From positions 5,738 to 69,737 of the forward strand of contig CAYWYC010000001.1 in the NCBI GenBank assembly GCA_964462565.1: a stretch of DNA of 64,000 nt. Direction: 5' to 3'. The notes below the pieces were generated by a model. The model was not told the origin of the DNA. It searched no databases and was given only the letters and a program-made list of their open reading frames with translations. A program made the position numbers and the translations under genes. How positions within the stretch are numbered: position 1 is the first letter of the stretch; each line of letters opens with the position of its first letter. The stretch comes from an uncultured Candidatus Sumerlaeota bacterium (lineage in GTDB: Bacteria > Sumerlaeota > Sumerlaeia > UBA8349). This document shows, in pieces, positions 25,368 to 59,053 of this stretch.

Positions 25368-25401
25368 GATATTCCTGTTCAAGATAAGGGAGTCAGCAGG
25401 A

Positions 25402-41113: not shown

Positions 41114-42523
41114 TCAAACAGGCTTATGCGTTTTCTTCTTCTGGAACTTCTTGATCTCTTCCGTCTTCTTCTTGTCTTCCGGAAGGCCGCGTCCCATGAG
41201 GGCGGCAGTGGCTTTCTTCCCTTCTTCCACGCCGGGCTGGTCGAATGCGTTGATATTGTATAGCCCGCCGGAGAAGGCCGTCTGCACTTCCAGCATGTAA
41301 AGCAAACCGCCCACATTTTCCGGGGTGATTTCGTCGAGGATCAGGCGAACGCTGGGGCGCTTGGCCTTGTACAGCGCGAACTCCGTCGCTTCCAGTTCGG
41401 CATTGAGCAGTTCGCCCATATCGTTGCCCTTGAGGAAGTCGAGTTCGGAAATAGCGCGAAAACTCTTCGGAATGCGACATTGCGCGCGGAATTTTTCGAC
41501 TTGGATCAACGTGAAAATCTTGTCGTTCGGACCTTCCACGTAAAGCTGAACCTGCGAGTGCTGGTCGGTAGCGCCCAGGGCCTTGACAGGAGTCTGCCCG
41601 GCATAAACTTTTGCACCGCTGACGTCCTTGGCCTTGCCCAAACTTTCCGCCCACATCTGGCGATACCAGTCCGCCACATCGCGCAGCGCGTTTGAATAAG
41701 GCATCATCACGGAAATGACCTTGCCCTTCTTGGTGTCGGCCAGATAATGAATCGCCGAGTTCAGATAAGCGGGGTTTTTGAAAAGGTCGCTGGTCTTGCA
41801 GCGTTCATCCATTTCGCGGGCGCCGGCCATCATGCCCTTGATATCCACTCCTTCCACCGCCGCCGGAAGCAGACCGACTGCCGTGAGTTCGGAAAAACGT
41901 CCGCCCACATTGTCCGGCACGATAAAGGTGTGTTCCAGTTCCTGGGCGTCGGCGTATGGACGCAGCAGGCCCTTGGAGGTATCGGTGGTGGCGATCAGCT
42001 GCTTGGGCAGAGCCTTGGCGCCGGCCTTGCGCTTGATCAACTCCACAATCACCATCAGCTGCGACATGGTCTCAGGAGTCTTGCCCGACTTGGTAATGAC
42101 GTTGAAGATGGTTTTCTTCACGTCGATCACGTCGAGGAGTTTGGCCAGAATTTCAGGGTCCGAATTGTCCATCACGAAAAGGCGGGGGAAGCCTTTGCGC
42201 TTTTTTGAATCGACCAGGTTGTGATAGTTATGAGCCAGCGCGGAATGCACGCAGATGGGACCCAGGGCCGAGCCACCAATTCCGAGCACCACAAAGTTCT
42301 CGTACTTTTTCACCTTCTTGGCGCAGTCCAGAATCTGGTCGGCCAGATCGGTATCGTAGGGCAGGTCGTAAAAACCGAGTTGCTTGCTTTCGCGTTTTTC
42401 GATCAAATCTTCATGAATGGCGTCGGCTCGTTTCTGCAAAGCCTGGATGGATTTCAGGGTAACGCCGTGGCGGTTTCCGACCACGTCGGAGAGCGCCGCA
42501 TTGTAATCATACTTGATGGACAT
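41114..42523 (-). CDS. pgi: glucose-6-phosphate isomerase
   Basis: Bacterial/archaeal-type PGI with the SIS domain (VVLGIGGSALGP) and catalytic region. Length 469 aa. Confidence 0.9.
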   Translation of the reverse strand: MSIKYDYNAALSDVVGNRHGVTLKSIQALQKRADAIHEDLIEKRESKQLGFYDLPYDTDLADQILDCAKKVKKYENFVVLGIGGSALGPICVHSALAHNYHNLVDSKKRKGFPRLFVMDNSDPEILAKLLDVIDVKKTIFNVITKSGKTPETMSQLMVIVELIKRKAGAKALPKQLIATTDTSKGLLRPYADAQELEHTFIVPDNVGGRFSELTAVGLLPAAVEGVDIKGMMAGAREMDERCKTSDLFKNPAYLNSAIHYLADTKKGKVISVMMPYSNALRDVADWYRQMWAESLGKAKDVSGAKVYAGQTPVKALGATDQHSQVQLYVEGPNDKIFTLIQVEKFRAQCRIPKSFRAISELDFLKGNDMGELLNAELEATEFALYKAKRPSVRLILDEITPENVGGLLYMLEVQTAFSGGLYNINAFDQPGVEEGKKATAALMGRGLPEDKKKTEEIKKFQKKKTHKPV

Positions 42524-42586: not shown

Positions 42587-42630
42587 AATATAAAAATGGC
42601 ATCTCCGCGATGCCTTGCAGAGATGCCATC
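42587..42630 (-). terminator. rho-independent terminator downstream of the NuoEF-like gene (end of the long minus-strand operon)
   Basis: The 10-bp stem ATGGCATCTC/GAGATGCCAT, with a nested GGCATC/GATGCC alternative, is followed on the minus strand by UUUUUAUAUU. Confidence 0.5.
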
Positions 42631-42654: not shown

Positions 42655-45099
42655 TCACGCACCGGCTTTAACGGCTTCCTTGGCTTCTTCTTCGTCAACC
42701 TTAAGCGGCACGATATCGATCGCGTCTTCCGGACAGATATCCTTGCAGGCTCCGCACCGGACGCACTTGGCGCTGTCCACCTTGTGCTTCTTGTAGGGTT
42801 CCGGAAGAATGGCGTCGGTGGGACATGTCTGGGCGCAAAGGGTGCAGCCGATACACTTGTCGTTGATCTGGTAGCGCACCAGGTTGGGGCACTTTCCGGC
42901 CGGGCAGATGCCGTTGACATGGGCCTCGTATTCCTCACGGAAATGCTTGAGCGTGGAAACCACGGGATTGGGAGCCGTCTTACCCAAACCGCAAAGACTC
43001 GTGTTCTGAATCTTCGCCGCCAGGTCTTCCAGGTTTTCCAGATCTTTCTTGGTTGCTTCGCCTTCGCAAAGCCGCTCCAGAATCTCAAGCATACGTTTGG
43101 TCCCGATGCGGCAATAGGTACACTTTCCGCAGGACTCCGCCTGGGTAAAGTCCATGAAGAAACGCGCCACATCCACCATGCAGTCCCTGCTGTCGAGAAC
43201 CACCAGACCGCCCGAACCCATGATGCATCCCGTTTCCTTTACGGCTTCGAAGTCCACAGACGTGTCGCCCCACTCGGATGGCAAACAACCACCCGAAGGA
43301 CCACCCAACTGCACGGCCTTGAAGGTCCGGCCTTCGCGAACGCCACCGCCGATCTGATGAACGATCTGGTTGATCGTCGTTCCCATGGGGACTTCGATCA
43401 GACCGCCACGCTTGACCTTTCCGGCCAGGGCGAAAACCTTGGTGCCCTTGCTGCCTTCCGTACCGAGTTTGGCAAAGGCTTCGGGACCGTTACGCAGGAT
43501 CCATGACACGCAACCAAAAGTCTCGACATTGTTCACCAGCGTCGGACAACCCCAGAGTCCCTTTTCGGCGGGATAAGGCGGACGAAAGGTCGGCATACCG
43601 CGATTACCCATAATCGACGCAAGCAGCGCGCTTTCTTCACCGCACACAAAAGCACCCGCACCTTCCTTCACCTTCAGGTGGATGTTCTTTCCGGAGCCGA
43701 AAACATTGTCACCCAAAAAGCCACGCTCTTCAGCCTGTTCCAGCGCCTTCTTAATACGCTGAACGGCCAGGTTGTATTCCGCGCGAATGTAGAGGTAGCC
43801 CTCCGTGGCGCCAACTGCAAGCGCGCCGATGGCGATGCCTTCCAGAATGCGATGCGGATAGGCTTCGAGCAACATGCGGTCCATAAACGCGCCGGGGTCG
43901 CCTTCGTCGCCGTTGCAGACGATGTACTTGGTATCGCCTTCCGCGTTATGCACGAGATTCCACTTGGTCCCGGTCGGAAAACCCGCGCCGCCTCGGCCAC
44001 GCAGGCCGCTGTTCTGGATGGCCTTGATAATATCCATTTCGCTATATTCTTTGGAGCATTTTTCCAAGGCGCTATAGCCGTCGGCTTCCACATATTCATC
44101 GATATCCAAAGGATCGATCGCGCCGCACTGGTCGGTTACGATACGCACCTGGGGGTCCAGAAAGGCTCCCCCGTCGCCCGTCTTTGGATCGATGACAACG
44201 CCCGTCTGTCTGACTTCTTCTTCATCATTGGTCAGGAAATCGACCGCCGAAGCAATGCTGCTCTTGATGCGCCCAAACAGGGATCCGGGCTTGACCGATT
44301 GCCGGATCAGGCGCTTGGCGCTGTTGACATCGTTATCCCCAAAGAGAATCGCCTCGCCATTCGGCTTGACCACTTCCACCAAAGGCACGCGATGGCACAT
44401 CCCCGAGCAACCAACGGATTTGATCAGCACATTGGAGCCGGCCAGTTTGGCGGCCATCTTCAAGGAGTCGCAAACTTCCTGGCTACCGCTGGCGATGCAG
44501 CAGGAGTTCAAGCCCACGCGCACCTCGTATTGCGGCTTGTCTTCACCAAGTAGTTTCTCGCGAACTTCCATGCCTTCTTCGCGGTCCTTGTCGTGCAGGC
44601 CGGCTTCTTCGTCCCGCAGGAATTTTTCCAGCGAATCCGTCGCCTTGCCCGGCGTCAGATGACCGAAGGTGTAACCGTCGATCAGCATAACCGGAGCCAG
44701 CGTACAACAACCAATACAACCCACGCGCTCCAGGGTAAACACCTTGTCGCAGTCGGTATCCTCATCTTCACTGACGATTCCCAACTCACGCCGAAGGGTA
44801 TCGCTGATCCGTTCCGCGCCTGCAACATGGCAGGCCGTACCATGGCAGACCTGAACCACGTGCTTACCGGTTTCACGATGACGAAACTGGCTATAGAAGG
44901 TGGAGATACCCATGAGTTGGGAGGCCGATATGTCCGTGTTCAGACAGACATAGTTCATGGCCTCCATGGGCAGGAATCGCCACTGGCGCTGAATCGCCTG
45001 AAGAATGGGAATAGCCGACTCCGGCTTGTGCCCGCACTCCTTGATGATGCGATCCAGTTCCTTAAATTCGGTAAAACGTCCATTTTCTTCTGACATCAT
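42655..45099 (-). CDS. fused NuoE-like [2Fe-2S] thioredoxin-fold plus NuoF-like NADH/FMN flavoprotein with additional Fe-S ferredoxin domains (HndC/HydB-like NADH-dependent diaphorase subunit)
   Basis: N-terminal NuoE motifs (CHGTACH...CIGCC). A second 2Fe-2S-like module. NuoF signatures GLRGRGGAGFPTGTKW (NADH), FVCGEESALL (FMN) and CGKCTYCR (N3 cluster). Two C-terminal 4Fe-4S motifs (CIGCTLCAQTCP, CVRCGACKDICP). Length 814 aa. Confidence 0.85.
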   Translation of the reverse strand: MMSEENGRFTEFKELDRIIKECGHKPESAIPILQAIQRQWRFLPMEAMNYVCLNTDISASQLMGISTFYSQFRHRETGKHVVQVCHGTACHVAGAERISDTLRRELGIVSEDEDTDCDKVFTLERVGCIGCCTLAPVMLIDGYTFGHLTPGKATDSLEKFLRDEEAGLHDKDREEGMEVREKLLGEDKPQYEVRVGLNSCCIASGSQEVCDSLKMAAKLAGSNVLIKSVGCSGMCHRVPLVEVVKPNGEAILFGDNDVNSAKRLIRQSVKPGSLFGRIKSSIASAVDFLTNDEEEVRQTGVVIDPKTGDGGAFLDPQVRIVTDQCGAIDPLDIDEYVEADGYSALEKCSKEYSEMDIIKAIQNSGLRGRGGAGFPTGTKWNLVHNAEGDTKYIVCNGDEGDPGAFMDRMLLEAYPHRILEGIAIGALAVGATEGYLYIRAEYNLAVQRIKKALEQAEERGFLGDNVFGSGKNIHLKVKEGAGAFVCGEESALLASIMGNRGMPTFRPPYPAEKGLWGCPTLVNNVETFGCVSWILRNGPEAFAKLGTEGSKGTKVFALAGKVKRGGLIEVPMGTTINQIVHQIGGGVREGRTFKAVQLGGPSGGCLPSEWGDTSVDFEAVKETGCIMGSGGLVVLDSRDCMVDVARFFMDFTQAESCGKCTYCRIGTKRMLEILERLCEGEATKKDLENLEDLAAKIQNTSLCGLGKTAPNPVVSTLKHFREEYEAHVNGICPAGKCPNLVRYQINDKCIGCTLCAQTCPTDAILPEPYKKHKVDSAKCVRCGACKDICPEDAIDIVPLKVDEEEAKEAVKAGA

Positions 45100-45140
45100 T
45101 TATTTCCTTATTCCGGCATTTGCGTCGGGTCAAACGGCAA

Positions 45141-47042
45141 TTACTCCTGCTTGCCGATGGCGTACAAATAGCCTTCGCTTCGAATGTAGATTTTGTTGTC
45201 CACAAAGGCGGGAGTACCGTAAATCGGTTCGTCCAGCGAGCCTTCGGACAGGGCCTTGTATTCATCACCCAAGCTGAAAATACGGGTGATGCCATCATTG
45301 CAGGCCAGATAGATGGTGTTGGCTTCATCGCTTACATAAATCGGAGACGCTGTCGCCCCGGCAGGCAGAAATTCTTCCCAAAGCAGACTACCGTCTTTGG
45401 TGTTGAAGCAGGTCAGGTAACCACCCGCCGCCACCTGGAGCACATAATCACCCGCCGTCACCGGGCTGACCGTATCAGGCAGACCATCGTCGGCCTTCCA
45501 GACAATGTGATCTTCCCCAAGGGTGCCGCTGCCGCCGGGTTTGATAGCCAGCAGTTCCGCGCCGTCGCAGGTGATATACATTTTTTGTCCGTCCCAGGCC
45601 GGAGACGGACCGGGTTCGCAGAAATACCATTCGGCGCGCCATTTTTCCTTGCCCGTCATGGGATCATAAGCCGCGTTCCACTCAGGAGCGACCAGCACCA
45701 GTTCATCACCACTTTCGGCGGGAACGATGGACGGCGAAGCCCAGGAAGCGCCAAAAGGACGGTTCGTCTTGAAGACTTCTTCGCCCGTTTCGCCCTTAAT
45801 GCCATAGATGAAAGAACTGTCCACATCGTCGTGATCCCACTGCACATAGACCAGACCCTTGTGGGCCAGCAAGGAAGAAGCATAGCCGTACATGCTTTCA
45901 TGCCTGCCGAAGCTGTTGATCCATTTCACATTTCCATCAAAGTCCACCGCCGCCAGATGTCCTGTCGCAAAAATGGCGTACACATATCGCCCGTCTGTCG
46001 CGGCGGTCGATGCGGCATAGCCCGTATCGGGATAGATATCGGTCAGTTCAATATCATCTTCTTCAGGGATGTCCAGTTTGCTTTCCCATAGCATTTCGCC
46101 ATCGGCCCGGTTAAAGGCATAGACATAGCGGCTTGCGCCGTCGGCGCCGGTCAGAAAAATCTTGTCGTCCCAGATGATGGGCGAATTATTACCGGGCATT
46201 ACGAGTTCCGTGGTCCACAGAATATTCTCTTCGGCAAGGCCGTCCCATGTATCGGGGTAGTCGCCTTTTTCGGCAATGCCCAGGTTGCCGGGTCCACGCA
46301 AACAGGGCCAACTGAATTCCGCTTCCGGCAGTTCAACCGTTTCGGGAGCGGCGGGGGTCGGCTCCGGCGTGTCCCCACCATTTTCGCCAGCGCCGTTCGT
46401 TTCCGCATCGCCATCCGTCGCCTCGGCCATCTGGCTCTGATCGACCTTCTTGGCCATCTCAGTCCAGTCTATGTCTTCCAGGGCCCCCCTGCCGACAAAG
46501 GCCAGGATCACCAGCGCCGCAATCAGCACCGCGCCCACAATCGTGGCCATCAGGGCAATGCGGCCCTTGTAAAAATCGCTCATGCCATTTTCACCAAGTT
46601 GCGCCTGGATATCGCTCAGCCGTATCTTTCGTTTCTTGGCTTCCGATTCCAGATTTTCAATCTCACTTTTCAGCAAGGCTTTCTCTTGTTGAAGGTCACC
46701 AGAAGTCGGCGGGTACTCCAGCGCCAGGCTGAAATACCACTTTGCGGAAATGATCCAGAATACCAATGCGCCTAACATGATATAAAACGCCGCCTGAAAG
46801 CGCTCACGGTTGCGGAAATATTCCTGTCGCAAAGTCAGGTCTTTTTCGCGAATTTCTTCCATCAGTTCCTTGTTTTGGGGATCGGAGGCCAGTTCCTCCT
46901 TCATCTCATCCAGTTCCGTGGTCACCAGCAGGCCACTTTTCTGCTCCTCCAAATACTGGTAAAAAACCACGCCCAGCATAATAACAAGAAATACTCCCAA
47001 CACGATCATCAGATTGAATGCGATTTTCTTTTTCTGATTCAT
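45141..47042 (-). CDS. membrane-anchored PQQ-type (BamB-like) beta-propeller repeat protein with N-terminal TM helices, coiled-coil and a Gly/Asp/Glu-rich linker
   Basis: Two hydrophobic helices flank a coiled-coil segment. A low-complexity ATDGDAETNGAGENGG linker follows, then repeated YVYA...DG..LW / GKEKWR motifs typical of PQQ-like eight-bladed propellers. Confidence 0.7.
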   Translation of the reverse strand: MNQKKKIAFNLMIVLGVFLVIMLGVVFYQYLEEQKSGLLVTTELDEMKEELASDPQNKELMEEIREKDLTLRQEYFRNRERFQAAFYIMLGALVFWIISAKWYFSLALEYPPTSGDLQQEKALLKSEIENLESEAKKRKIRLSDIQAQLGENGMSDFYKGRIALMATIVGAVLIAALVILAFVGRGALEDIDWTEMAKKVDQSQMAEATDGDAETNGAGENGGDTPEPTPAAPETVELPEAEFSWPCLRGPGNLGIAEKGDYPDTWDGLAEENILWTTELVMPGNNSPIIWDDKIFLTGADGASRYVYAFNRADGEMLWESKLDIPEEDDIELTDIYPDTGYAASTAATDGRYVYAIFATGHLAAVDFDGNVKWINSFGRHESMYGYASSLLAHKGLVYVQWDHDDVDSSFIYGIKGETGEEVFKTNRPFGASWASPSIVPAESGDELVLVAPEWNAAYDPMTGKEKWRAEWYFCEPGPSPAWDGQKMYITCDGAELLAIKPGGSGTLGEDHIVWKADDGLPDTVSPVTAGDYVLQVAAGGYLTCFNTKDGSLLWEEFLPAGATASPIYVSDEANTIYLACNDGITRIFSLGDEYKALSEGSLDEPIYGTPAFVDNKIYIRSEGYLYAIGKQE

Positions 47043-47102
47043 TGAATCTTTCGCCCTTCTAATAAAGAATTCTTGCTGCTCTTTGTATATGTGCGCCGTC
47101 TT

Positions 47103-47579
47103 TTAAAGACGGTTCGGTTCCGGTATGGTCTCACCGGTTTTCTCGCGTTTACGCTGATGCTCCACGGGACAAGCGTCATAACAACGCCCGCAAGCCAGGC
47201 AGTAGCCATAATCGGCCTCATAATCCGAACGCTTGCCCTTGAAAAAAACGTTGCCGATCTTCATGGCAACAACCAGACCCAGGAAGACGCCCAGGATCGT
47301 CGCGCCGACGCGGTACTTACCGCGCATCATGGTGGCCCGTTCGTAAATGAACTCCGCCGGCATGCCCTGTGCCCGATAGGCCTCCGTCTCCAATGTTTGC
47401 TCTTCCATCTGCTGCTTTTCTTCCAGGTAAAGCCGTTCCGCCACGCGGACAGAATAATCCATGCGCGAAAGCGAATGAGCCGCCAGTCTCCCAACAATGC
47501 CGCCTACAATCGGCAGTAATACCAAGGCCGCAACAAAAACACCAAAACGGTGAAAGCGGTTTTGTATATAGATCTTCAT
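47103..47579 (-). CDS. small membrane protein with two TM helices and a single C-terminal ferredoxin-like CxxCxxCxxxCP motif
   Basis: CLACGRCYDACP near the C-terminus. Two hydrophobic helices (FGVFVAALVLLPIVGGIVG and VGATILGVFLGLVVAM). The start is at the internal Met MKIYIQN, abutting the upstream NapH-like gene. Confidence 0.5.
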   Translation of the reverse strand: MKIYIQNRFHRFGVFVAALVLLPIVGGIVGRLAAHSLSRMDYSVRVAERLYLEEKQQMEEQTLETEAYRAQGMPAEFIYERATMMRGKYRVGATILGVFLGLVVAMKIGNVFFKGKRSDYEADYGYCLACGRCYDACPVEHQRKREKTGETIPEPNRL

Positions 47580-47580
47580 C

Positions 47581-48459
47581 TTATGCACCTTCCTCAAGTT
47601 TTTTATCGGATTCCCGAATCGCCCCAAAGGGACAGGCGTCCCGGCAAAGCCCGCATACCACGCACTTGTCCGGCGTGATGGTCACATGCTTCCACGAAAA
47701 GCGCGAAAGCAGACTCAGCAAAGCGCCATAGGGGCACAGATAACGGCAATAAGCCCGTCCCACAAACATGCAGAGGATGATAAAGGCGATGCTGATCACC
47801 CAGAGATAAAACTGTGCCGAAAAACGCCAGAACGAGACAAAGGGGTCATACTGGCAGATAATGAGCTGTGAACCCAGGGCCGCGAAAAGCACCGCAAAAC
47901 CCAGGTAGAAATAGCGGATAATGCTCAGGCCCTCGTCCAGATACCGAGGCACCCGAATGGGCTTTACCAATATCAATTCCTGCATGGCGCCCAGCGGACA
48001 TACCCCGGCGCAAAAAACGCGCCCGTAAAAGATAGACAAAACCAGAGGCAGCAGGAAAAACAAAAGCACGAATCCCGGCAACGCATAGGTCGGATCGAAG
48101 ATGGCCATCGACACGTTGCCAATTGCCCCAATCGGACAAACGCAACCCCTCCGATAAAAGCCGAAATAAAGCACGGCGAAAATGGTCATACCGAGCATGG
48201 CCTTGCGGCTGCGCAGCTTATAGATAAAAAACGTGGCCACGATCAAGGCTATCGCCAGCACCCCCGTATCCATCCAGGCCTTCCAGCCCTGCCGGGCGGG
48301 CGTCTGACTTTTGTATGGATACTCATAGTCAGGCCCGAAATCCGGCGGGGGAAACCTTTCTTCCACACTGGCGGTCCAGCCGGCTCCCACAAGCAGAAAA
48401 ATGATGGTGACGATCAATCCCAGGATGATCGTTTTTCGTCGTAAGGCGAGTCCATTCAT
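47581..48459 (-). CDS. NapH/MauN-family membrane polyferredoxin (CX3CP-motif iron-sulfur membrane protein)
   Basis: Multiple TM helices interleaved with GCVCPIGA, CAGVCPLGA and CRYLCPYGA motifs, plus a C-terminal CVVCGLCRDACP 4Fe-4S motif. This is the classic NapH/NosH/MauN architecture. Confidence 0.75.
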   Translation of the reverse strand: MNGLALRRKTIILGLIVTIIFLLVGAGWTASVEERFPPPDFGPDYEYPYKSQTPARQGWKAWMDTGVLAIALIVATFFIYKLRSRKAMLGMTIFAVLYFGFYRRGCVCPIGAIGNVSMAIFDPTYALPGFVLLFFLLPLVLSIFYGRVFCAGVCPLGAMQELILVKPIRVPRYLDEGLSIIRYFYLGFAVLFAALGSQLIICQYDPFVSFWRFSAQFYLWVISIAFIILCMFVGRAYCRYLCPYGALLSLLSRFSWKHVTITPDKCVVCGLCRDACPFGAIRESDKKLEEGA

Positions 48460-48527
48460 TGCTTCACATAATTCCGATTCTAATATGAGATGTGTTCATA
48501 CATATTCCAACGTGCTGCGTCCTGCGC

Positions 48528-49124
48528 TTATGCTTCTTCCTTCGGCATTTTGCCCTTGGCTTCCGGAATACGCGGAATATAGGGATCGTTCGCCGGTACG
48601 CGCCGGAAAGCGTCGGCCGGACAATTGACCGCAATATTGCACTCGTTGCAGTTCACGCAGAGCCCGTGATTCACCTGCAGGTAAAGCGAGCCATTGCCAA
48701 ACTGGGTGCAACCCTTGACGCATTTGCCACAGGCATTGCAACGATCCTCATCCACATTGTACTCAAAATAAGGATCTTCCGCAAAACGACGATCCAAAGC
48801 ATTGACCGGGCACAGCTGGTTTTCCGCCGCTTCCGTCAGGGCGTTGGGTTCGGCTTCAAAAAATCCCGTGCACAGGTCACAATAGCCGCACATGGGAAAG
48901 TAATGAAAGCACTTCACCGCGCTTTGGTCCAGAACGCAATGGGTGGCGCACTGACCGCACTGGCTGCACTTGTCCGGATCAATCTGCCAGACGGTCCCTT
49001 CCTTGGAGCCCTGGGCAATGCCTTTCATGGTCAGCCCGATTGCCGTGCCGCCCAGAATCAGGCCACCGGCGGTTCGTCCGCAAAGGGTGAGGAAATTCTT
49101 TCTGCTTATTTTTTTGTCACTCAT
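48528..49124 (-). CDS. Tat-exported periplasmic 4x[4Fe-4S] ferredoxin, NapG/MauM-like
   Basis: SRKNFLTLCGRTAGG twin-arginine-like leader. Four Cys clusters (CSQCGQCATHC, CGYCDLC, CNACGKCVKGC, CVNCNECNIAVNCP). Confidence 0.75.
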   Translation of the reverse strand: MSDKKISRKNFLTLCGRTAGGLILGGTAIGLTMKGIAQGSKEGTVWQIDPDKCSQCGQCATHCVLDQSAVKCFHYFPMCGYCDLCTGFFEAEPNALTEAAENQLCPVNALDRRFAEDPYFEYNVDEDRCNACGKCVKGCTQFGNGSLYLQVNHGLCVNCNECNIAVNCPADAFRRVPANDPYIPRIPEAKGKMPKEEA

Positions 49125-50032
49125 TTTGATGCTCCATTTTCCTTTATGTTGAAGAATCGAACCTTGTTCTGAAAACTGTCAAGCAGAACGATGCGGTCGT
49201 CCTTGTCCACAGCCAGGTCCATTCCTTCAGTGCTTGGGTTGAAATTTTCTTTGCCGCCCAAAAAGGCCAGCATTTCTCCATCGGTGCTATAGATTTTCAG
49301 GCGGGGAATGCCCTTTTCGGCAGTGATAACCCTTCCATCATCCATAACATACAGATTGCAGGGATTGCAGCAGCCGCAAAATCCCTCGGCATTGCTTCCG
49401 AATTGGCCCCAGTTTTTGGTCAATTCATGATTGGCGTCATAATATTCCACACGATGCTTGCCCGTGTGTCCCAAAACCAGCATCCCCTTGGAGTCAAAGA
49501 CCAGATCAAAATAGGGGCTGGGAATCAAAAAGCCATCGATATAATCCACATAATCGCCCACAGTGGCAAAGCGCGACACCCGTCGGCTGCCCGCGTCGGC
49601 AATATAAATGAATCCATTTTTCAGGGCCAGGCCGGTGATAAAGAGAAACTGGCCGGGATCGCGTCCCTTCTCACCATAGGCGGTTTCCTTGTTGCCGTCC
49701 TTGTCATAAACATTCACCTGCCAACGACTGGCGGCATAAACCTTGCCATCATCACCAACGGCGATAGCCGTATAGGGGGATTCCGAATCGATCTTGCCGG
49801 TCCGTTCGCCATCGGCATTGAAAATATGTACTCCCTTGCTGCCGGCCACATAGATTTTCTGATCGGGACCAATGGCGATGGATTTCACCATATCCATTTC
49901 CACCTCGAAAGCGGCATCCTTGTCCTCGACCAGTTCATATTCCAGATTGCCTTCGTCCGCCGCCCAAACAGAGGGGGCAGCAAGACATACCAGCAAAAGG
50001 ATGGTTAATATACAAAGCGTTGCTTTTTTCAT
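49121..50032 (-). CDS. secreted NHL-repeat six-bladed beta-propeller protein containing an FCGCCNPCN cysteine cluster
   Basis: Cleavable signal peptide (LLLVCLAAPSVWAAD). Repeated GxxGxxPGQFxxPxGLAxxxNGxIYIADxGxxRVxxF NHL-type units. The unusual Cys cluster sits in blade 5. Confidence 0.7.
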   Translation of the reverse strand: MKKATLCILTILLLVCLAAPSVWAADEGNLEYELVEDKDAAFEVEMDMVKSIAIGPDQKIYVAGSKGVHIFNADGERTGKIDSESPYTAIAVGDDGKVYAASRWQVNVYDKDGNKETAYGEKGRDPGQFLFITGLALKNGFIYIADAGSRRVSRFATVGDYVDYIDGFLIPSPYFDLVFDSKGMLVLGHTGKHRVEYYDANHELTKNWGQFGSNAEGFCGCCNPCNLYVMDDGRVITAEKGIPRLKIYSTDGEMLAFLGGKENFNPSTEGMDLAVDKDDRIVLLDSFQNKVRFFNIKENGASK

Positions 50033-50040
50033 ATTTTACC

Positions 50041-51489
50041 TCATTTCCTCAGGTCCACGCAGACCATCTCGGTCATGTCGCGCAGGAGTAGCAGGCCATC
50101 GGCGTAAGCCATGGGAGCCCAGGCGTCATGGCCATCAAGCAGGTCGAACCGGTCCAATTCCCGATATTCTTCAGGTGTCGCTTCCACGATATGCAGCGCG
50201 CCTTCCCGGTCGTCAAGCACATAAAATAACTCACCCACAAGCAGATAGGGCCCCAGGCCAAATCGCGTTCGGCCACTGGACCAGGCCCATTCGCCGGTGT
50301 CCGGCTTCAGGCAAACCATTTCGGCCGGTTTGGGCTTCACGCCATAAATATGGCCCTTATAAAAAATGGGAGTCTGCTGATCGGAGCCAAACTCCTGGGC
50401 CTTCAACGCGTAAAGTTCTTCCACGCCAATCGTGCCGTCGCCCTGTTCAACCAATTTCACCATCATCGAACCCGCATTGTAGCCGCCGCTGAAAAAGATG
50501 CGCCCGTCATCCGGTCCCAGATATACCGGCGAAGGCACGTTGGCGATACCGATCTTCCATTCCGGCTTGGTCCACAGCAGTTCATGGTCTTCGGCGGAGA
50601 TGGAAACCACGCCCTGACCGGTGCAATAAACAAACTGCTTTTCGCCGGCGAATTCAATCGGCAGGATCGACGAGTGCGTCATGCCCATGTTGTCCAGTTC
50701 CGGCGCCGTCCGCCAGACCTCTTCACCCGTTTCCAGATCCAGAGCCAGCATAAGCGGCTTGGTACCGGGGGCAATGACGACGGTATCGCCTTCAATGACC
50801 GGACACTGCCCGGCATACCACGGCGGCACGGTGCATTGATATTCCTCAACCATGTTGATAGACCACTTCTTCTCACCGGTCTTCGCGTCCAGACAAACCA
50901 GATGCAGTTTGGGTCCGAGAGACACCACATAATCATCGGTAACGGCGGGGATAGTCCGCGACATACCATGGTTGCGCTTGATGCTGACCGAATAGGTGAA
51001 TCGCCAGATTTCCTCGCCCGTTTTCAGGTTCAGGCAGCGGATGGCGTCCTCTTCCTTTTCACGGTCATAGTCGGTCACGTAAGCCATTCCATTAAGAATC
51101 GCCGCACCGGCGTGGCCTTCGCCCATTTCCACGCGCCAGAGCACGGGAGGCCCCTCTTCGGGCCAGTCGCGGGCCAGTTCACCACCAGAATCGGCGATGT
51201 TTTCCAGTTGCGGACCGCGAAACCAGGGCCAGCTGCCCGGCAAATTCGATGCCGTTGCGGTTCCCGGGATTAGCGTCCCGAGGTTCAGGTCTTCCTGGCT
51301 CGATGCACTGGCCGTACGGTCGTAAAAAACCGGTCGCCGGACCATAAATTCCTTTTCACCCACCGGCTCCTGCATGATCCAGTAAAGCCCCAGACCAAAG
51401 CAAATAAGCGCCACGAGGGCGGCGGGAAAGGCCGGGTATTCCATCATAAGACCATACAAACCGTTGGTTGTTTTTTTATCTTCACTCAT
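50041..51489 (-). CDS. membrane-anchored PQQ-type (BamB-like) beta-propeller repeat protein
   Basis: N-terminal signal-anchor FPAALVALICFGLGLYWI, then tandem PQQ-like repeats (LNLKTGEEIWRF, LDAKTGEKKWSI, LDLETGEEVWRT, LKPDTGEWAWSS). Confidence 0.7.
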   Translation of the reverse strand: MSEDKKTTNGLYGLMMEYPAFPAALVALICFGLGLYWIMQEPVGEKEFMVRRPVFYDRTASASSQEDLNLGTLIPGTATASNLPGSWPWFRGPQLENIADSGGELARDWPEEGPPVLWRVEMGEGHAGAAILNGMAYVTDYDREKEEDAIRCLNLKTGEEIWRFTYSVSIKRNHGMSRTIPAVTDDYVVSLGPKLHLVCLDAKTGEKKWSINMVEEYQCTVPPWYAGQCPVIEGDTVVIAPGTKPLMLALDLETGEEVWRTAPELDNMGMTHSSILPIEFAGEKQFVYCTGQGVVSISAEDHELLWTKPEWKIGIANVPSPVYLGPDDGRIFFSGGYNAGSMMVKLVEQGDGTIGVEELYALKAQEFGSDQQTPIFYKGHIYGVKPKPAEMVCLKPDTGEWAWSSGRTRFGLGPYLLVGELFYVLDDREGALHIVEATPEEYRELDRFDLLDGHDAWAPMAYADGLLLLRDMTEMVCVDLRK

Positions 51490-51493
51490 TTTC

Positions 51494-54400
51494 CTACTGC
51501 TCCTCCTTCAAGCCTCGTACCACTGGTGAACGCAGCACACTGAAAGCGCTCAACCAGGTCGTTAATAATCCACAAGCGTAAATTCCCAAAAGAATGACCA
51601 CCAGGCCCTCCCAGGGGATGCGCGCCGAACGCATATAGATAGATGGCGCTATGCTAATTATAGCACAGATCGTCCCAAAACCCATACCCGCGGCAAGCAA
51701 AAACCCATTTTCGGTCATAGCCAGCCACATCCTCTGGCTGAAGCGATAACCCAAGGCACTGAAAAGCGCAAATTCCCGACGACGCTCAATCAGATTGCGC
51801 AGCAGCGCCAGACCTAAACCAATCGTTCCAAGCAGAAGCCCCAAGCCCCCTAAACTCATGAATGTAGAGAGATAGGTATTCTCCACCTGCATCAGGGCGT
51901 TGAGTTTGTCCGGCGCACCGGTCAGGTCCAAGCCGTAATTCGTAAACTCGGCTTCCAAAGCCTGCGAAATGGCGTCCGCCTGATCAAAAGGCGCTTCCAC
52001 CGCAAAGACCGACCAGCCGCTGATCGCCGCATAGGCCGCCTCGAAATTCTTTTCTGAAATCATCAATTCATTTTGCAGCACACTTTTTTGCAGCATGGCG
52101 ATGATCGTTATATCCTTGCCGCCCACTTCGATGGACTTGCCGATCCCCAGATGCAGCAGCCAATAGACGGTCGTATAATCGCCAATGGCCGGAATGCTGC
52201 CATCCTTGAGCGGCTTGTTCAGCAGCGCCCAGGGATTCTCCAGGTCGGCCTCGGAAACGCTTCCTTCCCTGAAGGCCGACGCATCAATCACACCGGAAAA
52301 ATTAAAACCGCCCCGTTCGATAAAAGGATCGCTGACTCCGACAATACGCGGCTCATGGGCAGCATAGAGATTCAGACAGCTGATTTCGTCACCGGGCCGC
52401 AGGCGCATGGTGAAAATTTCCGCATTTTCTTCAACCATTTGCTTTTGGGCATCGTCCTGCCAGTCGCTTTTCAGGGGCGCGCGATGCAGCGGAAATGCCG
52501 ATTCACCGATCAGGGCAAAGCCACCCGTTCCGGAATCCTTCTCTGTCTGCTTGTGGGCCACCTGCCGGTTCGAGCCGACCGCTACAATCAGGAAAGTCGC
52601 GCTTGCTACGAGAGCCGCCACCATCAGGCTGCGTCCGGCCTGGCGCTTGGTATTCGTCGCGCCAAGACGTGCCAAACTCAGTTTTTCCGGCTTCATTCCC
52701 GTCTCACCACCCAGCCAATAGCGGAAAAAGGCAAGTGCGCCAACCAACAGCAAAGCGCCGATGATAAAGAAAAAGGCCGCCTGACTGTGCGCCGGCTGCC
52801 AACTGGCCGGAGCAAGCAGCCCCAGGCCACTGATCACGCAAATAAAGCCGACCCACAAACTGACCCGACGCTTGCCACCCGTCAGGTCCAGCTGCTCCGT
52901 GCGTCCCGCCAGCAGACTGCGTTCGGGAATCTTCACCAGAATTCGTGTGGCGATCCACATGGAAATCATGGCAATAATCCAGCCGCCCACAAAACCGATC
53001 CCCAGACTCACCGGTGTGGCCGCAAATTCCAGAAAGGAGCCGCCGATGGAGCCGACCCACCAGTTGTTAAGCCCATAGACCAGAACAGCCGCATAGCCAA
53101 GCCCCATGATAATCCCAAGAACGCCGCCACCCAGGGCCACAATGCCGCCTTCCGTCAGAAGCAGACGACGGGCGCGCCCACGTCGAAAACCGACCGAAAG
53201 CAAAAGACCCAATTCCCGCGAACGGCTCTCGATACCCAACTTAAAAAGCACTTGCAGCAGCGCCGCCGCCGAAATCAGCAGAAACAGGCTGAATCCGATA
53301 AAAAGCCCGCCAAAGTCGGTGGTACCCGAACTGGCATCGAGTCCCTGCTGCTTTACCGGCTCAAAAACCATCCCCGCCGAAGCAGGCGTAAAGTTTTTTC
53401 GCAAATTCGACCGAATGGCATCGGCATATTGTTTTTCCCAAATAATCGAAGTCAGGTCGCCATAGCGGTTTGCCCACATGTTTTTGGCATCGGTCATCGA
53501 GACAAAGCCCTTGGGCAGGGTCCGGTAATCGTCCCAGTATTTCTCATCCTTTTCCCGAATTCGCCTCAGGTCCAGGGGAAAAGGCGGATCCCAACTGGCC
53601 ACCGTGTCCGCGTCGGAAACCCCCTCGATATGGGGCGTTACCGCGCGATCCAAAAGCGGGGCGTCCATCGGTATAATTTCTTTTAAGGTAAAGTCCGACG
53701 ATTTTTCGACCAGCAAACCACCCTCACCGGTAGCGAAATAGGTCAAAGTCACCGTATCGCCCGGCTTCGCGCCCAGGTCGTCGGCAGCCCACTGGGTCAG
53801 GCTGATCTCCCCTTTTTTCAGGCCGGCCGACTGAATCGAAGCGGCCATGGAATAGGGAATCGACTTGTCCCCGATGGCAATGCCGTTGGCCAGATAAGAC
53901 AGTACGCGGTCGGGATGCAGGCTTTCGCGGGTTTCGGCACGCACGGCCTTGGTCGCGTCGGAGGCCAGATTCTGCTCATAATCCCCCATAAAAACCCGTC
54001 GGCTCTCCAGCACAAAGTAGTCGTCCGTCTCGCGAAGGATAATGCCGGCATTTTCCATGTCGGCATTTTGCACTAAAGCCTCCTGGATAGTCGTATCGGA
54101 ACCGGAAGCAAAGATCGCGTTGACCATGCCTTCCCGCTCCATGCGCGCCTGGATTTCTTCTTTCGGAATAAAGAGGTTCATCGGGCGCTGCTGGCTCGGG
54201 CGCAGGCTGAATCGCCCCAGACTCGAGTCGGGCAAAATCCGCTTCACCGTCTGCCGCATCGTGATTACGGTATCGTCTTTTTCGCCCAGGAAGGTCTCGC
54301 GCGGCACGGCGCTGGGTTTCTGGATGCGCAGAATAACGTCGTCGCCTTCCGACACGCCGATCTCATCGGCCAGCGTCTGGTTGATAACCGCGCTGAAGGC

Positions 54401-54811
54401 GTCAATCTCATCCCAGTTTATGTCAACGTCACCGAATTTCCAGAAATCACCATCCACTCCCAGGACCTGCACCTGACCCGCGCGGGCTTCCGTCGAAGCG
54501 TTCGACACGGTTCCGCGCTGAAAAACCACTCCCCTTGCGGCAATCTCACCGCCGGAAGCATCCTGCTCAATCTTCTCTGTCAGGTTTTCGTTGAAAAAAA
54601 GGTCATAGACCAAAGCATTATCAACATCTCCAAGCGCTTCCAGAACAATAGCTCGAAGGCTGTGGCGCATGGAATCGCCCACCAGGAGCGACCCCGTCAG
54701 CACGGCCACCCCCACGGCAGCCGCCAGCATGACCGACAGTTGAATCCGCCAGTAATTGCGCAGGCTGCGCTTAATAAAGGAGGAGATGGTGAATTGCTTA
54801 ATCGCCATCAC
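51494..54811 (-). CDS. ABC transporter permease with two FtsX domains (MacB/LolE-like, 1105 aa)
   Basis: Two 4-TM FtsX-type modules (around FGGLFIGFSLFLLIS... and TFMSLGGLGLLLGTIGL...), each preceded by a large extracytoplasmic domain. It overlaps the ATPase gene by 14 bp. Confidence 0.8.
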   Translation of the reverse strand: MMAIKQFTISSFIKRSLRNYWRIQLSVMLAAAVGVAVLTGSLLVGDSMRHSLRAIVLEALGDVDNALVYDLFFNENLTEKIEQDASGGEIAARGVVFQRGTVSNASTEARAGQVQVLGVDGDFWKFGDVDINWDEIDAFSAVINQTLADEIGVSEGDDVILRIQKPSAVPRETFLGEKDDTVITMRQTVKRILPDSSLGRFSLRPSQQRPMNLFIPKEEIQARMEREGMVNAIFASGSDTTIQEALVQNADMENAGIILRETDDYFVLESRRVFMGDYEQNLASDATKAVRAETRESLHPDRVLSYLANGIAIGDKSIPYSMAASIQSAGLKKGEISLTQWAADDLGAKPGDTVTLTYFATGEGGLLVEKSSDFTLKEIIPMDAPLLDRAVTPHIEGVSDADTVASWDPPFPLDLRRIREKDEKYWDDYRTLPKGFVSMTDAKNMWANRYGDLTSIIWEKQYADAIRSNLRKNFTPASAGMVFEPVKQQGLDASSGTTDFGGLFIGFSLFLLISAAALLQVLFKLGIESRSRELGLLLSVGFRRGRARRLLLTEGGIVALGGGVLGIIMGLGYAAVLVYGLNNWWVGSIGGSFLEFAATPVSLGIGFVGGWIIAMISMWIATRILVKIPERSLLAGRTEQLDLTGGKRRVSLWVGFICVISGLGLLAPASWQPAHSQAAFFFIIGALLLVGALAFFRYWLGGETGMKPEKLSLARLGATNTKRQAGRSLMVAALVASATFLIVAVGSNRQVAHKQTEKDSGTGGFALIGESAFPLHRAPLKSDWQDDAQKQMVEENAEIFTMRLRPGDEISCLNLYAAHEPRIVGVSDPFIERGGFNFSGVIDASAFREGSVSEADLENPWALLNKPLKDGSIPAIGDYTTVYWLLHLGIGKSIEVGGKDITIIAMLQKSVLQNELMISEKNFEAAYAAISGWSVFAVEAPFDQADAISQALEAEFTNYGLDLTGAPDKLNALMQVENTYLSTFMSLGGLGLLLGTIGLGLALLRNLIERRREFALFSALGYRFSQRMWLAMTENGFLLAAGMGFGTICAIISIAPSIYMRSARIPWEGLVVILLGIYACGLLTTWLSAFSVLRSPVVRGLKEEQ

Positions 54812-55469
54812 GCAAAGTCCCTGATTCCAGTCTCAAAAGCCGGCCAAAACGCCGCGCGAATGCTTCGTTATGGGTGACTGAAATCATCGCCACATCTTCC
54901 GATTCCAGCAGTTCCGTAAAAATCTCGGCAATCGACTCACCCGTTTTCTGGTCCAGATTCCCCGTCGGCTCGTCGCAAAGCAAAATATCCGGCTCGTTCA
55001 TCAAGGAACGGGCAATCGATACCCGCTGCCGCTCTCCACCGGACAGGTCCACCGGCAAATAATCGGTCCGCGGTTCCAGTCCTACCTTTTTCAGCAACAT
55101 GCGGGCGCGGTCCACTTCTGTCGCCCCACACTTTTTGCGCGCCAGGGCCGGTACCAGCACATTTTCCAGCGCTGAACACTGCGGCAGGAGTTGGTGGTCC
55201 TGAAAGATAAAACCCAGACTCTCATTTCGAAAGTCGGCAAGTTGTTTTTTGTTCAGTTGGAAGGGATCACGTCCGGAAAGCAGCACTTCACCCGACGAGG
55301 GTGTGTCCAGCGTCCCCAGAATATGGAGAAGCGTACTCTTGCCGCAGCCGGAAGGCCCCATGATAGAAACGGCCTGCTTCTTCTCAACAAAAAGATCGAC
55401 GCCCTCCAGAACGTGCACTTTGCCTGCCCGGGTGTCGAAATACTTTTTCAGATTCCTGGCTTCAATCAT
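54798..55469 (-). CDS. ABC transporter ATP-binding protein, MacB/LolD-like
   Basis: Walker A GPSGCGKST, signature LSGGERQRVSIARS, Walker B ILLCDEPTGNLD. Length 223 aa. Confidence 0.9.
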   Translation of the reverse strand: MIEARNLKKYFDTRAGKVHVLEGVDLFVEKKQAVSIMGPSGCGKSTLLHILGTLDTPSSGEVLLSGRDPFQLNKKQLADFRNESLGFIFQDHQLLPQCSALENVLVPALARKKCGATEVDRARMLLKKVGLEPRTDYLPVDLSGGERQRVSIARSLMNEPDILLCDEPTGNLDQKTGESIAEIFTELLESEDVAMISVTHNEAFARRFGRLLRLESGTLRDGD

Positions 55470-55858
55470 TTTCGCTGTCCTCTATCCAAGGCAATTGCGA
55501 GCGATCTGGATTGCAATACATAATAGGCACTGCTTTTCCGGGGACATGCCGTATTCCCGGTCAGTAGAGCCTCTATAATTTTCCTTCATCCATTTCGCGC
55601 ACTCAATCACCACATGGGATATTGTACTAAAGGCCAGGCATGAATGCGAGTAAAAAAAGCATATCAACCGCACAAAAGCCCAAAAGCCCATTATTGATCA
55701 CAAAGTCAACGCCTGAACGCAGGAAATACTAATATCAGCTCGCAAAACTAATTTTCAGAAAATACTCACAGCAGATTCCAGAAAACTGATCTTCCCCTTA
55801 TCGGAGCCCCTCGTGCAGTAGTGACCGCAAGCGCCCTTGGGCTTTAATGCTAACACCC

Positions 55859-58471: not shown

Positions 58472-59053
58472 TTTGATTCCTCTTTCTAGTGCTGTCTCAT
58501 CATTTTCAAGCACTTCGGTTTAGCGTATTACGCGGCAAATATCCATTAAAAAACCCGCCTGGAGAGAACCAAGCGGGCAAAATCTTGTCGGATTTATCGA
58601 AATCGGCGCGCTCAATTCCCCTTGCTCTGCCCCACAAGGAGCAGACCCGTAAGTCGGAGGAGATTGAGATTCAAGGCGCGACGCATGATATGTGCTTTCT
58701 AAAAACCGGGATAGATCAGACTGCCGGATCTTTCCATAACTTTAATATAGGCGGGGGAACCCATGCTGTCAAGACGGCATATTCTTTATCCACTATTCGC
58801 TTGACTGACATCCCCCACATGGCTATTACTATTGCAGAATAAGAAGAACGTTCATTGCGTTATTAAATGATTGTCACAGAATCTTTCGAAGATTTATTTC
58901 GGGAAGAGGGTGCAGTATACCCAGACAACACTCCCCTTCCCTGCCGGGCGAACTACAAGCAATCGTCTGTATGCAGCCAAAGGAGACAGAAGATATCGCG
59001 ATATTCTGGGGCAAAATATCAATCGAAGTGAGACACCAAAAAAGGAGATAAAT

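Follow-up and report, generated by a model that had tools for sequence, protein, structure and literature searches.

This study concerns an operon of nine open reading frames (ORFs) on the minus strand of a 64,000-nucleotide stretch of DNA (the window) from an uncultured Candidatus Sumerlaeota bacterium, contig CAYWYC010000001.1. The operon lies at positions 42655–55469, between leuS and pgi, and is tightly packed: the nine ORFs reported in a preliminary description, made from the letters of the sequence alone, are all found where it placed them, with gaps of −14 to +68 nt between genes. In the direction of transcription, the first product is an ABC ATPase of 223 aa (54798–55469; PF00005, 1e-31) of the LolD/YbbA/MacB nucleotide-binding domain type, whose gene overlaps by 14 nt that of a 1105-aa double-FtsX permease (51494–54811; PF02687 twice, with MacB_PCD). 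There follow a PQQ_2 propeller of 482 aa with an N-terminal transmembrane (TM) helix, which we call PQQa (50041–51489; PF13360, 2e-29), and an NHL propeller of 303 aa with a Sec signal and the sequence CGCCNPCN at residues 219–226 (49121–50032). The start of the next gene, for a NapG-like ferredoxin of 198 aa with Fer4 family matches and four 4-Cys motifs (48528–49124), overlaps the NHL stop by 4 nt. A NapH-like protein is encoded in two parts, an N-terminal one of 292 aa (47581–48459; PF12801, Fer4_5, 3e-15) and a C-terminal one of 158 aa with two TM helices and one CxxCxxCxxxCP motif (47103–47579). The last two genes encode PQQb, a second PQQ_2 propeller of 633 aa with three TM helices (45141–47042; PF13360, 3e-18), and an 814-aa flavoprotein in which BfuC and BfuB (NuoE and NuoF) are fused (42655–45099; PF01257, PF01512, PF10589 and Fer4).

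Domains were called with Pfam and NCBIfam, the NCBIfam scores being judged against the curated cut-offs, and the domain labels of the preliminary description agree with both libraries. These labels are right at the superfamily level, yet by profile scores no product is an orthologue of a characterised protein, because all matches to named equivalogs lie far under the curated cut-offs. An operon free of molybdoenzymes, multicopper enzymes and cytochromes had been described, and indeed no molybdoenzyme or copper enzyme was detected in it by Pfam, NCBIfam or motif scan, and the CXXCH heme motif is absent from all nine products. A periplasmic FMN-binding domain (FMN_bind, the ApbE substrate) was likewise found in none of the nine.

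The combination of propeller, NHL, NapG, NapH and NuoEF genes that had been singled out in the window is found again, with its order kept, in over ten phyla. A pattern scan with one genome per species returned at least 588 confirmed matches; two patterns can match one gene, and the matches amount to hundreds of species at least. The best 80 loci of these matches formed the comparison set, with ORFs labelled by means of the window proteins, and gene presence was counted in 46 loci from other genomes with enough flanking sequence. The core runs PQQ_2 propeller, NHL, NapG-like, NapH-like, PQQ_2 propeller, NuoE/F fusion, and its carriers comprise Sumerlaeota (Sumerlaeia), Aminicenantes, Spirochaetota (Spirochaetaceae), Armatimonadota, Calditrichota, Latescibacterota, Omnitrophota, Planctomycetota (Brocadiia, Pirellulales, Phycisphaerae, Sedimentisphaerales), Verrucomicrobiota, Kiritimatiellae and Bacteroidota (Bacteroidales, Lentimicrobiaceae and cultured Marinifilum species, the last with the full cluster). 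NHL, NapH and PQQb, the latter positioned between NapH and NuoEF, are present in all 46 loci, NapG in 45, PQQa in 44 and NuoEF in 42, whilst 41 of the 46 also have a GltD-like (NfnA/StnA-like) subunit adjoining NuoEF. The canonical gene order is kept in 37 of the 46 loci, and conservation of the arrangement is far beyond chance. Called genes overlap by 4–14 nt in Spirochaetales and Planctomycetaceae contigs, and in one Spirochaetales genome they do so throughout, from the propeller to FtsX.

After the core there usually follow the NfnA/StnA-like subunit, a further propeller, a family 4 glycosyltransferase (GT4) and the ABC/double-FtsX pair. Unbiased clustering of all ORFs in the 80 loci yielded only three more recurrent families, namely the GT4 enzyme (24 loci), the ABC ATPase (24 loci) and the double-FtsX permease (20 loci, with a partial ABC gene at the edge of four more), as a rule arranged PQQd-GT4-ABC-FtsX. 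Because the full cluster exceeds the stored flanks, the ABC/FtsX genes could be judged in 26 loci only; in 24 of these they are either present or truncated by the end of the locus. With a redox core syntenic in more than ten phyla and ABC/FtsX genes so regularly attached, the objection that these are separate, unrelated genes does not hold. The window copy is without the GltD-like/NfnA-like subunit, the propeller paralogues PQQc and PQQd, and GT4, four genes fewer than the full cluster, and on these comparisons we regard it as a trimmed member of a large and strongly constrained gene cluster. Two loci (L092:15029–16305 and L093:14993–16305) have what looks like a mobile insertion, a small helix-turn-helix gene and a RhuM-family gene between PQQb and NuoEF, the rest being intact. 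Two glycosyltransferase genes and a PBP4-type (Peptidase_S13) gene directly precede the cluster in a second Sumerlaeota genome (L089:4257–8569), which hints at a link to the cell envelope.

The hairpin and U tract already recognised at the end of the operon were found as a strong intrinsic terminator on the minus strand (42595–42630) with a 14-bp stem (7 G-C pairs), an 8-nt loop and then TTTTATATT, followed by the gene for phosphoglucose isomerase (PGI, 41114–42523). On the upstream side, the sole long non-coding gap adjoining the operon is a region of 389 nt on the same strand (55470–55858), beyond which lies the gene for leucyl-tRNA synthetase (LeuRS, 55859–58513); both flanking genes are housekeeping genes. 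The 389-nt region presumably bears the promoter; no convincing sigma-70 match and no Rfam family were found in it. The base composition of the operon is like that of its flanks, and the same DNA arrangement is present in three Candidatus Sumerlaeia metagenome-assembled genomes (MAGs).

The NHL protein is the signature gene of the cluster. Searches with it retrieved homologues of 26–44% identity from Sumerlaeota, Spirochaetales, Verrucomicrobiae, Planctomycetaceae, Phycisphaeraceae and Bacteroidales, the contigs of distant homologues having this gene neighbourhood too, and a profile of the family matched 2,835 clusters (50% identity) at E ≤ 1e-30 among 1.84 billion protein representatives. The members are named ‘hypothetical protein’ or nothing, with one exception (‘sugar lactone lactonase YvrE’). 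Five residues, F218, G220, C221, C222 and P224, are invariant in all 75 sequences of the family and N223 is kept in 74; position 219 is Cys in 63 and Ser in 10, and the fourth Cys occurs only in the lineage of the window. The CGCCNPCN cluster pointed out earlier is therefore present in the window copy, but as a family motif it shrinks to Gly-Cys-Cys-Asn-Pro. IPSPYFD and T237-x-E-K-G-x-x-R-x-K246 are the other invariant motifs. An AlphaFold2 (AF2) model of the protein is a six-bladed propeller (pLDDT 91.7) in which the GCCNP loop comes immediately before an inner strand (224–229). In the strand order, GCCNP and IPSPYFD each directly precede an inner strand and ADAGNR and TxEKGxxRxK lie in B-C loops, and because of these places the invariant residues would all be grouped around the central-channel face of the model. 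The invariant vicinal Cys-Cys pair, which would lie at the mouth of this channel, is the likeliest candidate for a redox-active or substrate-binding site.

By fold and sequence together, the NHL protein matches only non-enzymatic NHL domains in the PDB (TRIM, Brat, PknD). Many homologues carry Pfam matches to SGL/lactonase families, clade II NosZ is served by NapGH-like pairs, and a relationship to the lactonase-type (clade III) N2O reductases was considered. NosZ is a protein of about 600 aa or more with a seven-His CuZ site and a CuA domain. The NHL protein has 303 aa and four His residues, of which none reaches 90% conservation, and it occurs in phyla other than those of the clade III enzymes; the candidate was rejected. 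The description of the protein as secreted is borne out by the Sec signal of the window copy, but most homologues are held in the membrane by one TM helix. Signals of the Sec type or TM anchors prevail, an RR motif is seen in only 8 of the 75, and a few homologues have Tat-like signals. One Planctomycetota MAG (L064, near 10001–10870) has adjacent NHL paralogues, one TM-anchored and one with a Tat-like N-terminus (TRRSFLR). Tat-type NHL signals might have gone with the loss of ABC/FtsX, but no such pattern was found, and L064 has both. Uncharacterised accessory genes with NHL repeats have been reported in Huc-type [NiFe]-hydrogenase clusters (PMC12976888), an unrelated context and another association of NHL with Fe-S proteins.

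PQQa has the highest identity across phyla (48–61%) among PQQa, the NHL protein (26–42%) and the NuoE/F fusion. Its AF2 model is an eight-bladed propeller (pLDDT 87.6), for which Foldseek returned tetrathionate hydrolase and BamB about equally (E about 1e-17, TM-score 0.55–0.59). Profile similarity to the two is also equal and weak (E about 1e-7), so that tetrathionate hydrolase, though the top Foldseek match, was dropped as a relative, being indistinguishable from BamB by fold or profile. The family has features of its own, namely a flexible loop K171-R-N-H-G-M-S-R-T-x-P181 with a conserved His174, Q228-C229-P230 and M270-x-H272. Five Cys residues are conserved; four of them fall on the small-residue position that recurs with the PQQ_2 blade motif (hhC-hD-x-x-TG-x-x-W) and are probably structural, and a five-Cys metal site was accordingly discarded. 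PQQb has predicted TM helices at residues 9–27, 82–106 and 162–180 and conserves R65, D68 and R72 on its anchor. The two PQQ_2 propellers of the window score 39 and 35 bits against the BamB model (TIGR03300, cut-off 285) and 33–38 bits against the PQQ-dehydrogenase models (TIGR03075/03074, cut-off 480). Both identities were rejected on these scores, which also speak against the view that the propellers are clearly BamB orthologues.

The 16 Cys residues of the NapG-like protein, arranged in four 4-Cys motifs, are conserved at 98% or more among 73 homologues. The earlier label of a Tat-exported 4x[4Fe-4S] ferredoxin stands as far as these ligands go, but the Tat motif, RR in the family (R8 100%, R9 97%), is RK in the window copy. 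Neither the NapG/MauM models (TIGR00397, 17.9 bits vs 178.85; NF007012, 17.5 vs 269) nor the NapH/MauN models (TIGR02163, 58.7 vs 213; NF007013, 46.8 vs 234) reach their cut-offs, and the NosR model gives the NapH-like protein 46 bits vs 1000. The N-terminal part of the latter has a signal-like first TM helix (TM1), an RFPxPxF motif, a CxC, two CX3CP motifs (C150x3C154P and C238x3C242P) and the first CxxCxxCxxxCP (C266..C276P); the second 4-Cys motif is in the 158-aa gene. That gene had been read as a small membrane half-ferredoxin. Its two TM helices and single 4-Cys motif were correctly seen, but it is not a separate protein: it aligns with the C-terminus of the fused NapH-like homologues (420–450 aa) of other phyla. 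Its ATG comes 1 nt after the stop of the N-terminal part and is preceded by GAGGAAGG, and the same split is found in a second, divergent Sumerlaeota genome (NHL 44% identical). The split is thus real and specific to the lineage. Besides the two CX3CP and the two 4-Cys motifs, the NapH family keeps C106xC108 and C202, which the positive-inside rule and the signal-like TM1 place on the periplasmic face, and this placement suggests that the protein holds a cluster at its outer face. A Bacteroidetes MAG (L055:10818–12767) contains an apparent NapG-NapH fusion ORF of 649 aa that keeps a signal-like hydrophobic segment between its parts; being either a real fusion of odd topology or an assembly or frameshift artefact, it was not used as a topology clue.

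The NuoE/F fusion contains a [2Fe-2S] domain, a thioredoxin-like [2Fe-2S] domain, an FMN/NADH site, an N3-type [4Fe-4S] domain and a C-terminal 2x[4Fe-4S] domain, and all its cluster-ligand Cys residues are conserved in the family. Its best solved relative is NfnB (9n5u_B, 703 bits over residues 193–801), followed by the StnABC/9bov B chains and then HydB; complex I NuoF reaches about half the score. The complex I NuoF model TIGR01959 gives 471 bits (cut-off 558.65), and there are no nuoA-N neighbours. These relationships place the protein in the Bfu type (NfnBC/HydBC-like) rather than as a fragment of complex I; of the earlier identification as a fused NuoE/NuoF module, the fusion and the domains hold and the family needs correcting. 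No BfuA subunit is encoded in the 64-kb window. The GltD-like subunit found in other phyla has about 530 aa, matches StnA/NfnA over the first 290 residues and shows by Pfam one dinucleotide-binding motif only. In NfnABC, electrons from NADPH reach the B1-FMN-C1 site, where NAD+ is reduced, and the low-potential path runs from C1 through B3/B4 to ferredoxin, which docks on the C-terminal ferredoxin-like domain of NfnB (PMC12018979). A survey of Bfu enzymes, which are reversible, describes membrane forms linked to Mbh and Nuo and 17 BfuB clades with no assigned function, but no NapH-linked type (PMC9304861).

The ABC ATPase scores 244 bits against LolD (cut-off 308) and 203 against YbbA (cut-off 336) and on these values is an orthologue of neither. 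For the permease, a hydropathy scan predicts about 10 TM helices with periplasmic domains at about 46–502 and 747–980; it reaches 42 bits against the ADOP model (cut-off 622), and the closest solved chain is MacB (E 0.003). The two proteins share the superfamily features (FtsX fold, MacB_PCD) and are not orthologues of MacB (NF007826), LolCDE, YbbAP or ADOP. An invariant periplasmic Cys, Cys812, lies within an SCxNL motif of the permease family. Type VII ABC systems (LolCDE, FtsEX, MacB) act on envelope components. The ABC/double-FtsX pair is of this mechanotransducing class, and an action on a periplasmic substrate or on complex assembly is more likely for it than solute export.

Taken together, we propose that the operon encodes one membrane complex through which electrons of NAD(P)H in the cytoplasm reach the periplasm, a reading to which we give a probability of roughly one half. 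NADH would hand its electrons to the FMN of the fused BfuC-BfuB flavoprotein, and they would leave through the C-terminal 2x[4Fe-4S] domain of that protein, the equivalent of the ferredoxin docking site of NfnABC. The split NapH-like protein would come next: the electrons would arrive at its cytoplasmic 2x[4Fe-4S] domain, cross the membrane by way of its Cys motifs (CX3CP at the inner face, CxC and C202 at the outer face), pass to the Tat-exported NapG-like 4x[4Fe-4S] ferredoxin and end at the membrane-anchored propellers PQQa, NHL and PQQb. In most phyla the NfnA/StnA-like subunit would complete a Bfu-type module, which could bifurcate and push low-potential electrons outward; the window copy, with no NfnA-like subunit, may be a plain NADH-fed version. 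The ABC/double-FtsX pair, together with GT4 and the extra propellers elsewhere, might form an accessory periplasmic module for a substrate or for assembly of the complex. The periplasmic end is probably a membrane-anchored propeller reductase with thiol chemistry. The Cys pair of NHL, C229 of PQQa and C812 of the permease, together with the lack of any heme, molybdopterin, copper or PQQ signature, point to thiol/disulfide or persulfide chemistry or to a thiolate-bound metal rather than to an organic or heme cofactor. Invariant or almost invariant Cys residues predicted to be periplasmic are C812 of the permease, C229 of PQQa and C106, C108 and C202 of NapH; a thiol relay could be made up of these and the NHL Cys pair. 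The earlier suggestion that periplasmic propellers receive electrons from NADH, and work alongside an ABC system of type VII, fits all of these findings. We infer it, as we infer which subunits touch, which way the electrons flow, what part the Cys-Cys pair plays in catalysis and what the substrate is; for any particular substrate our confidence is much lower than for the general model.

It is tempting to go further and see in the full cluster a new class of electron sink, which would join bifurcation of NAD(P)H electrons by a Bfu-type module, an all-Fe-S NapH/NapG conduit with no quinone or heme that takes the low-potential half, and a Cys-Cys propeller reductase with no known cofactor. Fermentative members of the FCB and PVC groups, Sumerlaeota, Aminicenantes and Spirochaetota would dump electrons on a periplasmic or external acceptor, for example sulfane sulfur, with the type VII ABC mechanotransducer feeding in the substrate. 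We hold this extension only tentatively and consider it rather unlikely.

Several points weigh against the model of an NAD(P)H-fed complex. For proteins of the NapH type we know of no membrane-spanning cofactor, and NapGH in its canonical form oxidises quinol, so electrons could enter NapH from quinol instead of from NuoEF. Use of NADPH and bifurcation are not established, because the GltD-like subunit shows a single dinucleotide-binding motif, and bifurcation cannot apply to the window copy as it stands, since the A-like subunit is absent there. To name a catalytic site from two invariant Cys residues is to build on little, as the pair could equally be a vicinal disulfide with a structural role or part of a contact surface for NapG. 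Catalysis may in truth belong to PQQa, which is far better conserved than NHL. Finally, a model of a reductase and nothing more gives no reason for the GT4 glycosyltransferase.

This last point leads to an explanation in terms of the cell envelope, in which some part of the envelope (a glycolipid, lipoprotein or outer-membrane protein) is made or mended by the ABC/FtsX pair together with GT4 and the BamB-like propellers, and the redox module only powers disulfide reduction or isomerisation, as an Fe-S alternative to DsbD/CcdA. The regular company of GT4, in 24 loci and usually as PQQd-GT4-ABC-FtsX, would be accounted for, as would the extra glycosyltransferase and PBP4-type peptidase genes just upstream in the second Sumerlaeota locus, the membership of the propellers in the BamB-like PQQ_2 family, the conserved periplasmic Cys residues of NHL, PQQa and the permease and the general habit of type VII ABC systems of acting on the envelope. 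However, the window copy manages without GT4 and the extra propellers, GT4 itself is a generic exopolysaccharide (EPS)-type enzyme, the propellers fall far under the BamB cut-offs, and a four-cluster ferredoxin with a Bfu-type flavoprotein is a heavy outlay for housekeeping disulfide reduction; we think this explanation unlikely. The cluster could instead serve metal or metalloid handling. Ni, Cu, Hg, As or, within a cluster, Fe would be bound at the C-G-C-C site as a soft metal to be reduced or inserted, and ABC/FtsX would supply or remove it, in the manner of NosDFY and NosL with NosZ. Cys-Gly-Cys motifs and vicinal Cys pairs are classic soft-metal sites (MerA/MerT, ArsD, the A-cluster of acetyl-CoA synthase), PQQa conserves His174, Met270 and His272, and the Tat-type signals of a few NHL homologues suggest export in the folded state. 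Since most homologues are of the Sec type or TM-anchored (RR in 8 of 75), loading of a cofactor before export cannot be the general rule; C219 is moreover Ser in 10 of the 75, and the gene families recurrent across the loci showed no metallochaperone or metal-transport domain. A metal-handling system is in our view quite unlikely.

Two other possibilities concern the route of the electrons. They could flow inward, the propellers acting as a periplasmic dehydrogenase that delivers electrons through NapG/NapH to NAD(P)+ or quinone. There are precedents, in that MauM/MauN are named as siblings of NapG/NapH in the weakly matching NCBIfam models, NapH-like genes adjoin ExaA alcohol oxidases in 172 genomes (PMC8238504), and Bfu enzymes run in both directions (PMC9304861). 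Against this, no redox cofactor is evident in the propellers, which have no heme motifs and reach only 33–38 of the 480 bits of the PQQ-dehydrogenase models; reduction of NAD+ from the periplasm would require a donor of very low potential; and the carriers, to judge by their taxon names, are mostly anaerobic heterotrophs, in need of electron sinks rather than sources. Reverse flow therefore seems to us improbable, about as much so as metal handling. The operon might, alternatively, hold an ordinary NapGH-type quinol dehydrogenase for a reductase encoded elsewhere, with NuoEF, the propellers and the ABC genes as functionally separate neighbours. The Cys motifs by which NapG and NapH are defined do occur in the NapG-like and NapH-like proteins, and the window has no reductase gene of its own. 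But the model scores are under one third of the cut-offs, no Nap, Nos or other reductase gene is recurrent in the 80 loci, and neighbours that keep the same order, with overlapping genes, in more than ten phyla are hard to regard as separate; this is a very improbable account of the cluster.

Elsewhere in the window, a minus-strand gene (14415–19340) encodes a 1641-aa protein with PAS and GAF domains only and no detected output domain, near a gene for a PAS histidine kinase on the same strand (11769–13550). Two ORFs, of 870 aa (22833–25445, minus) and 517 aa (59419–60972, plus), have no Pfam matches, and tRNA and Rfam scans of the 64-kb window found nothing.

The kinds of component found here, a NapG/NapH conduit, a Bfu flavoprotein and a type VII ABC system, are known. 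The combination, the propeller end-module and the apparent direct input from NAD(P)H are described nowhere in the libraries and literature searched. For the NHL, propeller, NapG-like, NapH-like and permease proteins there is no dedicated NCBIfam model, the cluster was not met with in full-text literature searches, and no curated family model, solved structure or paper naming such a system was found. The opinion that no characterised system matches is thus upheld, with no named cluster in NCBIfam, the literature or the Bfu survey. If the proposed complex is real, a large proportion of uncultured anaerobic heterotrophs, among them the Planctomycetota, Verrucomicrobiota, Bacteroidota, Aminicenantes and Sumerlaeota of sediments, lakes, peat and digesters, would move cytoplasmic reducing power across the inner membrane by an undescribed route. 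This would involve neither quinones nor cytochromes and would end in propellers that are now annotated ‘BamB-like’ or ‘NHL repeat’ and ignored. The Bfu family would gain a membrane-linked, periplasm-directed member, and a protein family of thousands of sequence clusters would gain a function.

Among known systems, DsbD/CcdA and MsrPQ offer a functional analogy only, in that they bring electrons derived from cytoplasmic NAD(P)H to thiol-type chemistry in the periplasm. DsbD/CcdA does so with a thiol cascade and MsrPQ with heme b and Mo, in contrast to the Fe-S proteins and flavoprotein here, and no sequence relationship to either was detected. BamB and tetrathionate hydrolase are cofactor-free eight-bladed PQQ_2 propellers whose fold PQQa shares, but PQQa is TM-anchored, has conserved loops of its own and is nearer to neither. 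The ABC pair resembles MacB, LolCDE and YbbAP in joining a LolD/YbbA-like ATPase to an FtsX-fold permease with a MacB-type periplasmic core. It differs from them in the duplicated FtsX of the 1105-aa permease, with periplasmic domains of about 455 and 235 residues, and in the invariant periplasmic Cys of the permease family; unlike the MacB system, the operon has no gene for a MacA-like adaptor or TolC.

On the redox side, the NuoE/F fusion matches NfnB of the NfnABC/StnABC complexes along its whole length, with the N-terminal [2Fe-2S] and the C-terminal 2x[4Fe-4S] domains included. Unlike in those complexes, BfuC is fused to BfuB, the A-like subunit of the cluster has about 530 aa rather than the 960–1180 aa of NfnA/StnA, and the presumed acceptor is a membrane polyferredoxin and not the soluble ferredoxin of NfnABC. 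MauM/MauN of methylamine dehydrogenase and the pairs of NapH with PQQ alcohol dehydrogenases likewise set NapG/NapH-type genes beside periplasmic β-propellers. Those propellers contain TTQ or PQQ and oxidise their substrates, whereas the operon shows no evidence of a cofactor, of MauA/MauG, of a flavinylated FMN-binding domain or of a cytochrome. A further comparison is with the NapGH pair that serves periplasmic nitrate reductase and with NosGH from nos clusters of clade II, which also pair a Tat-type four-motif ferredoxin with a polytopic protein bearing two CX3CP motifs, and like NapH the NapH-like protein has a cytoplasmic 2x[4Fe-4S] domain. Canonical NapH is without the extra CxC, the RFPxPxF N-terminus and the two-TM insertion between the cluster motifs, and it is not split as here. 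In contrast to NapGH and NosGH, there is no NapA/NapB or NosZ in the operon or the 80 related loci; instead an NADH flavoprotein gene is clustered with the NapH-like gene, which suggests that electrons enter from the cytoplasm rather than from quinol.

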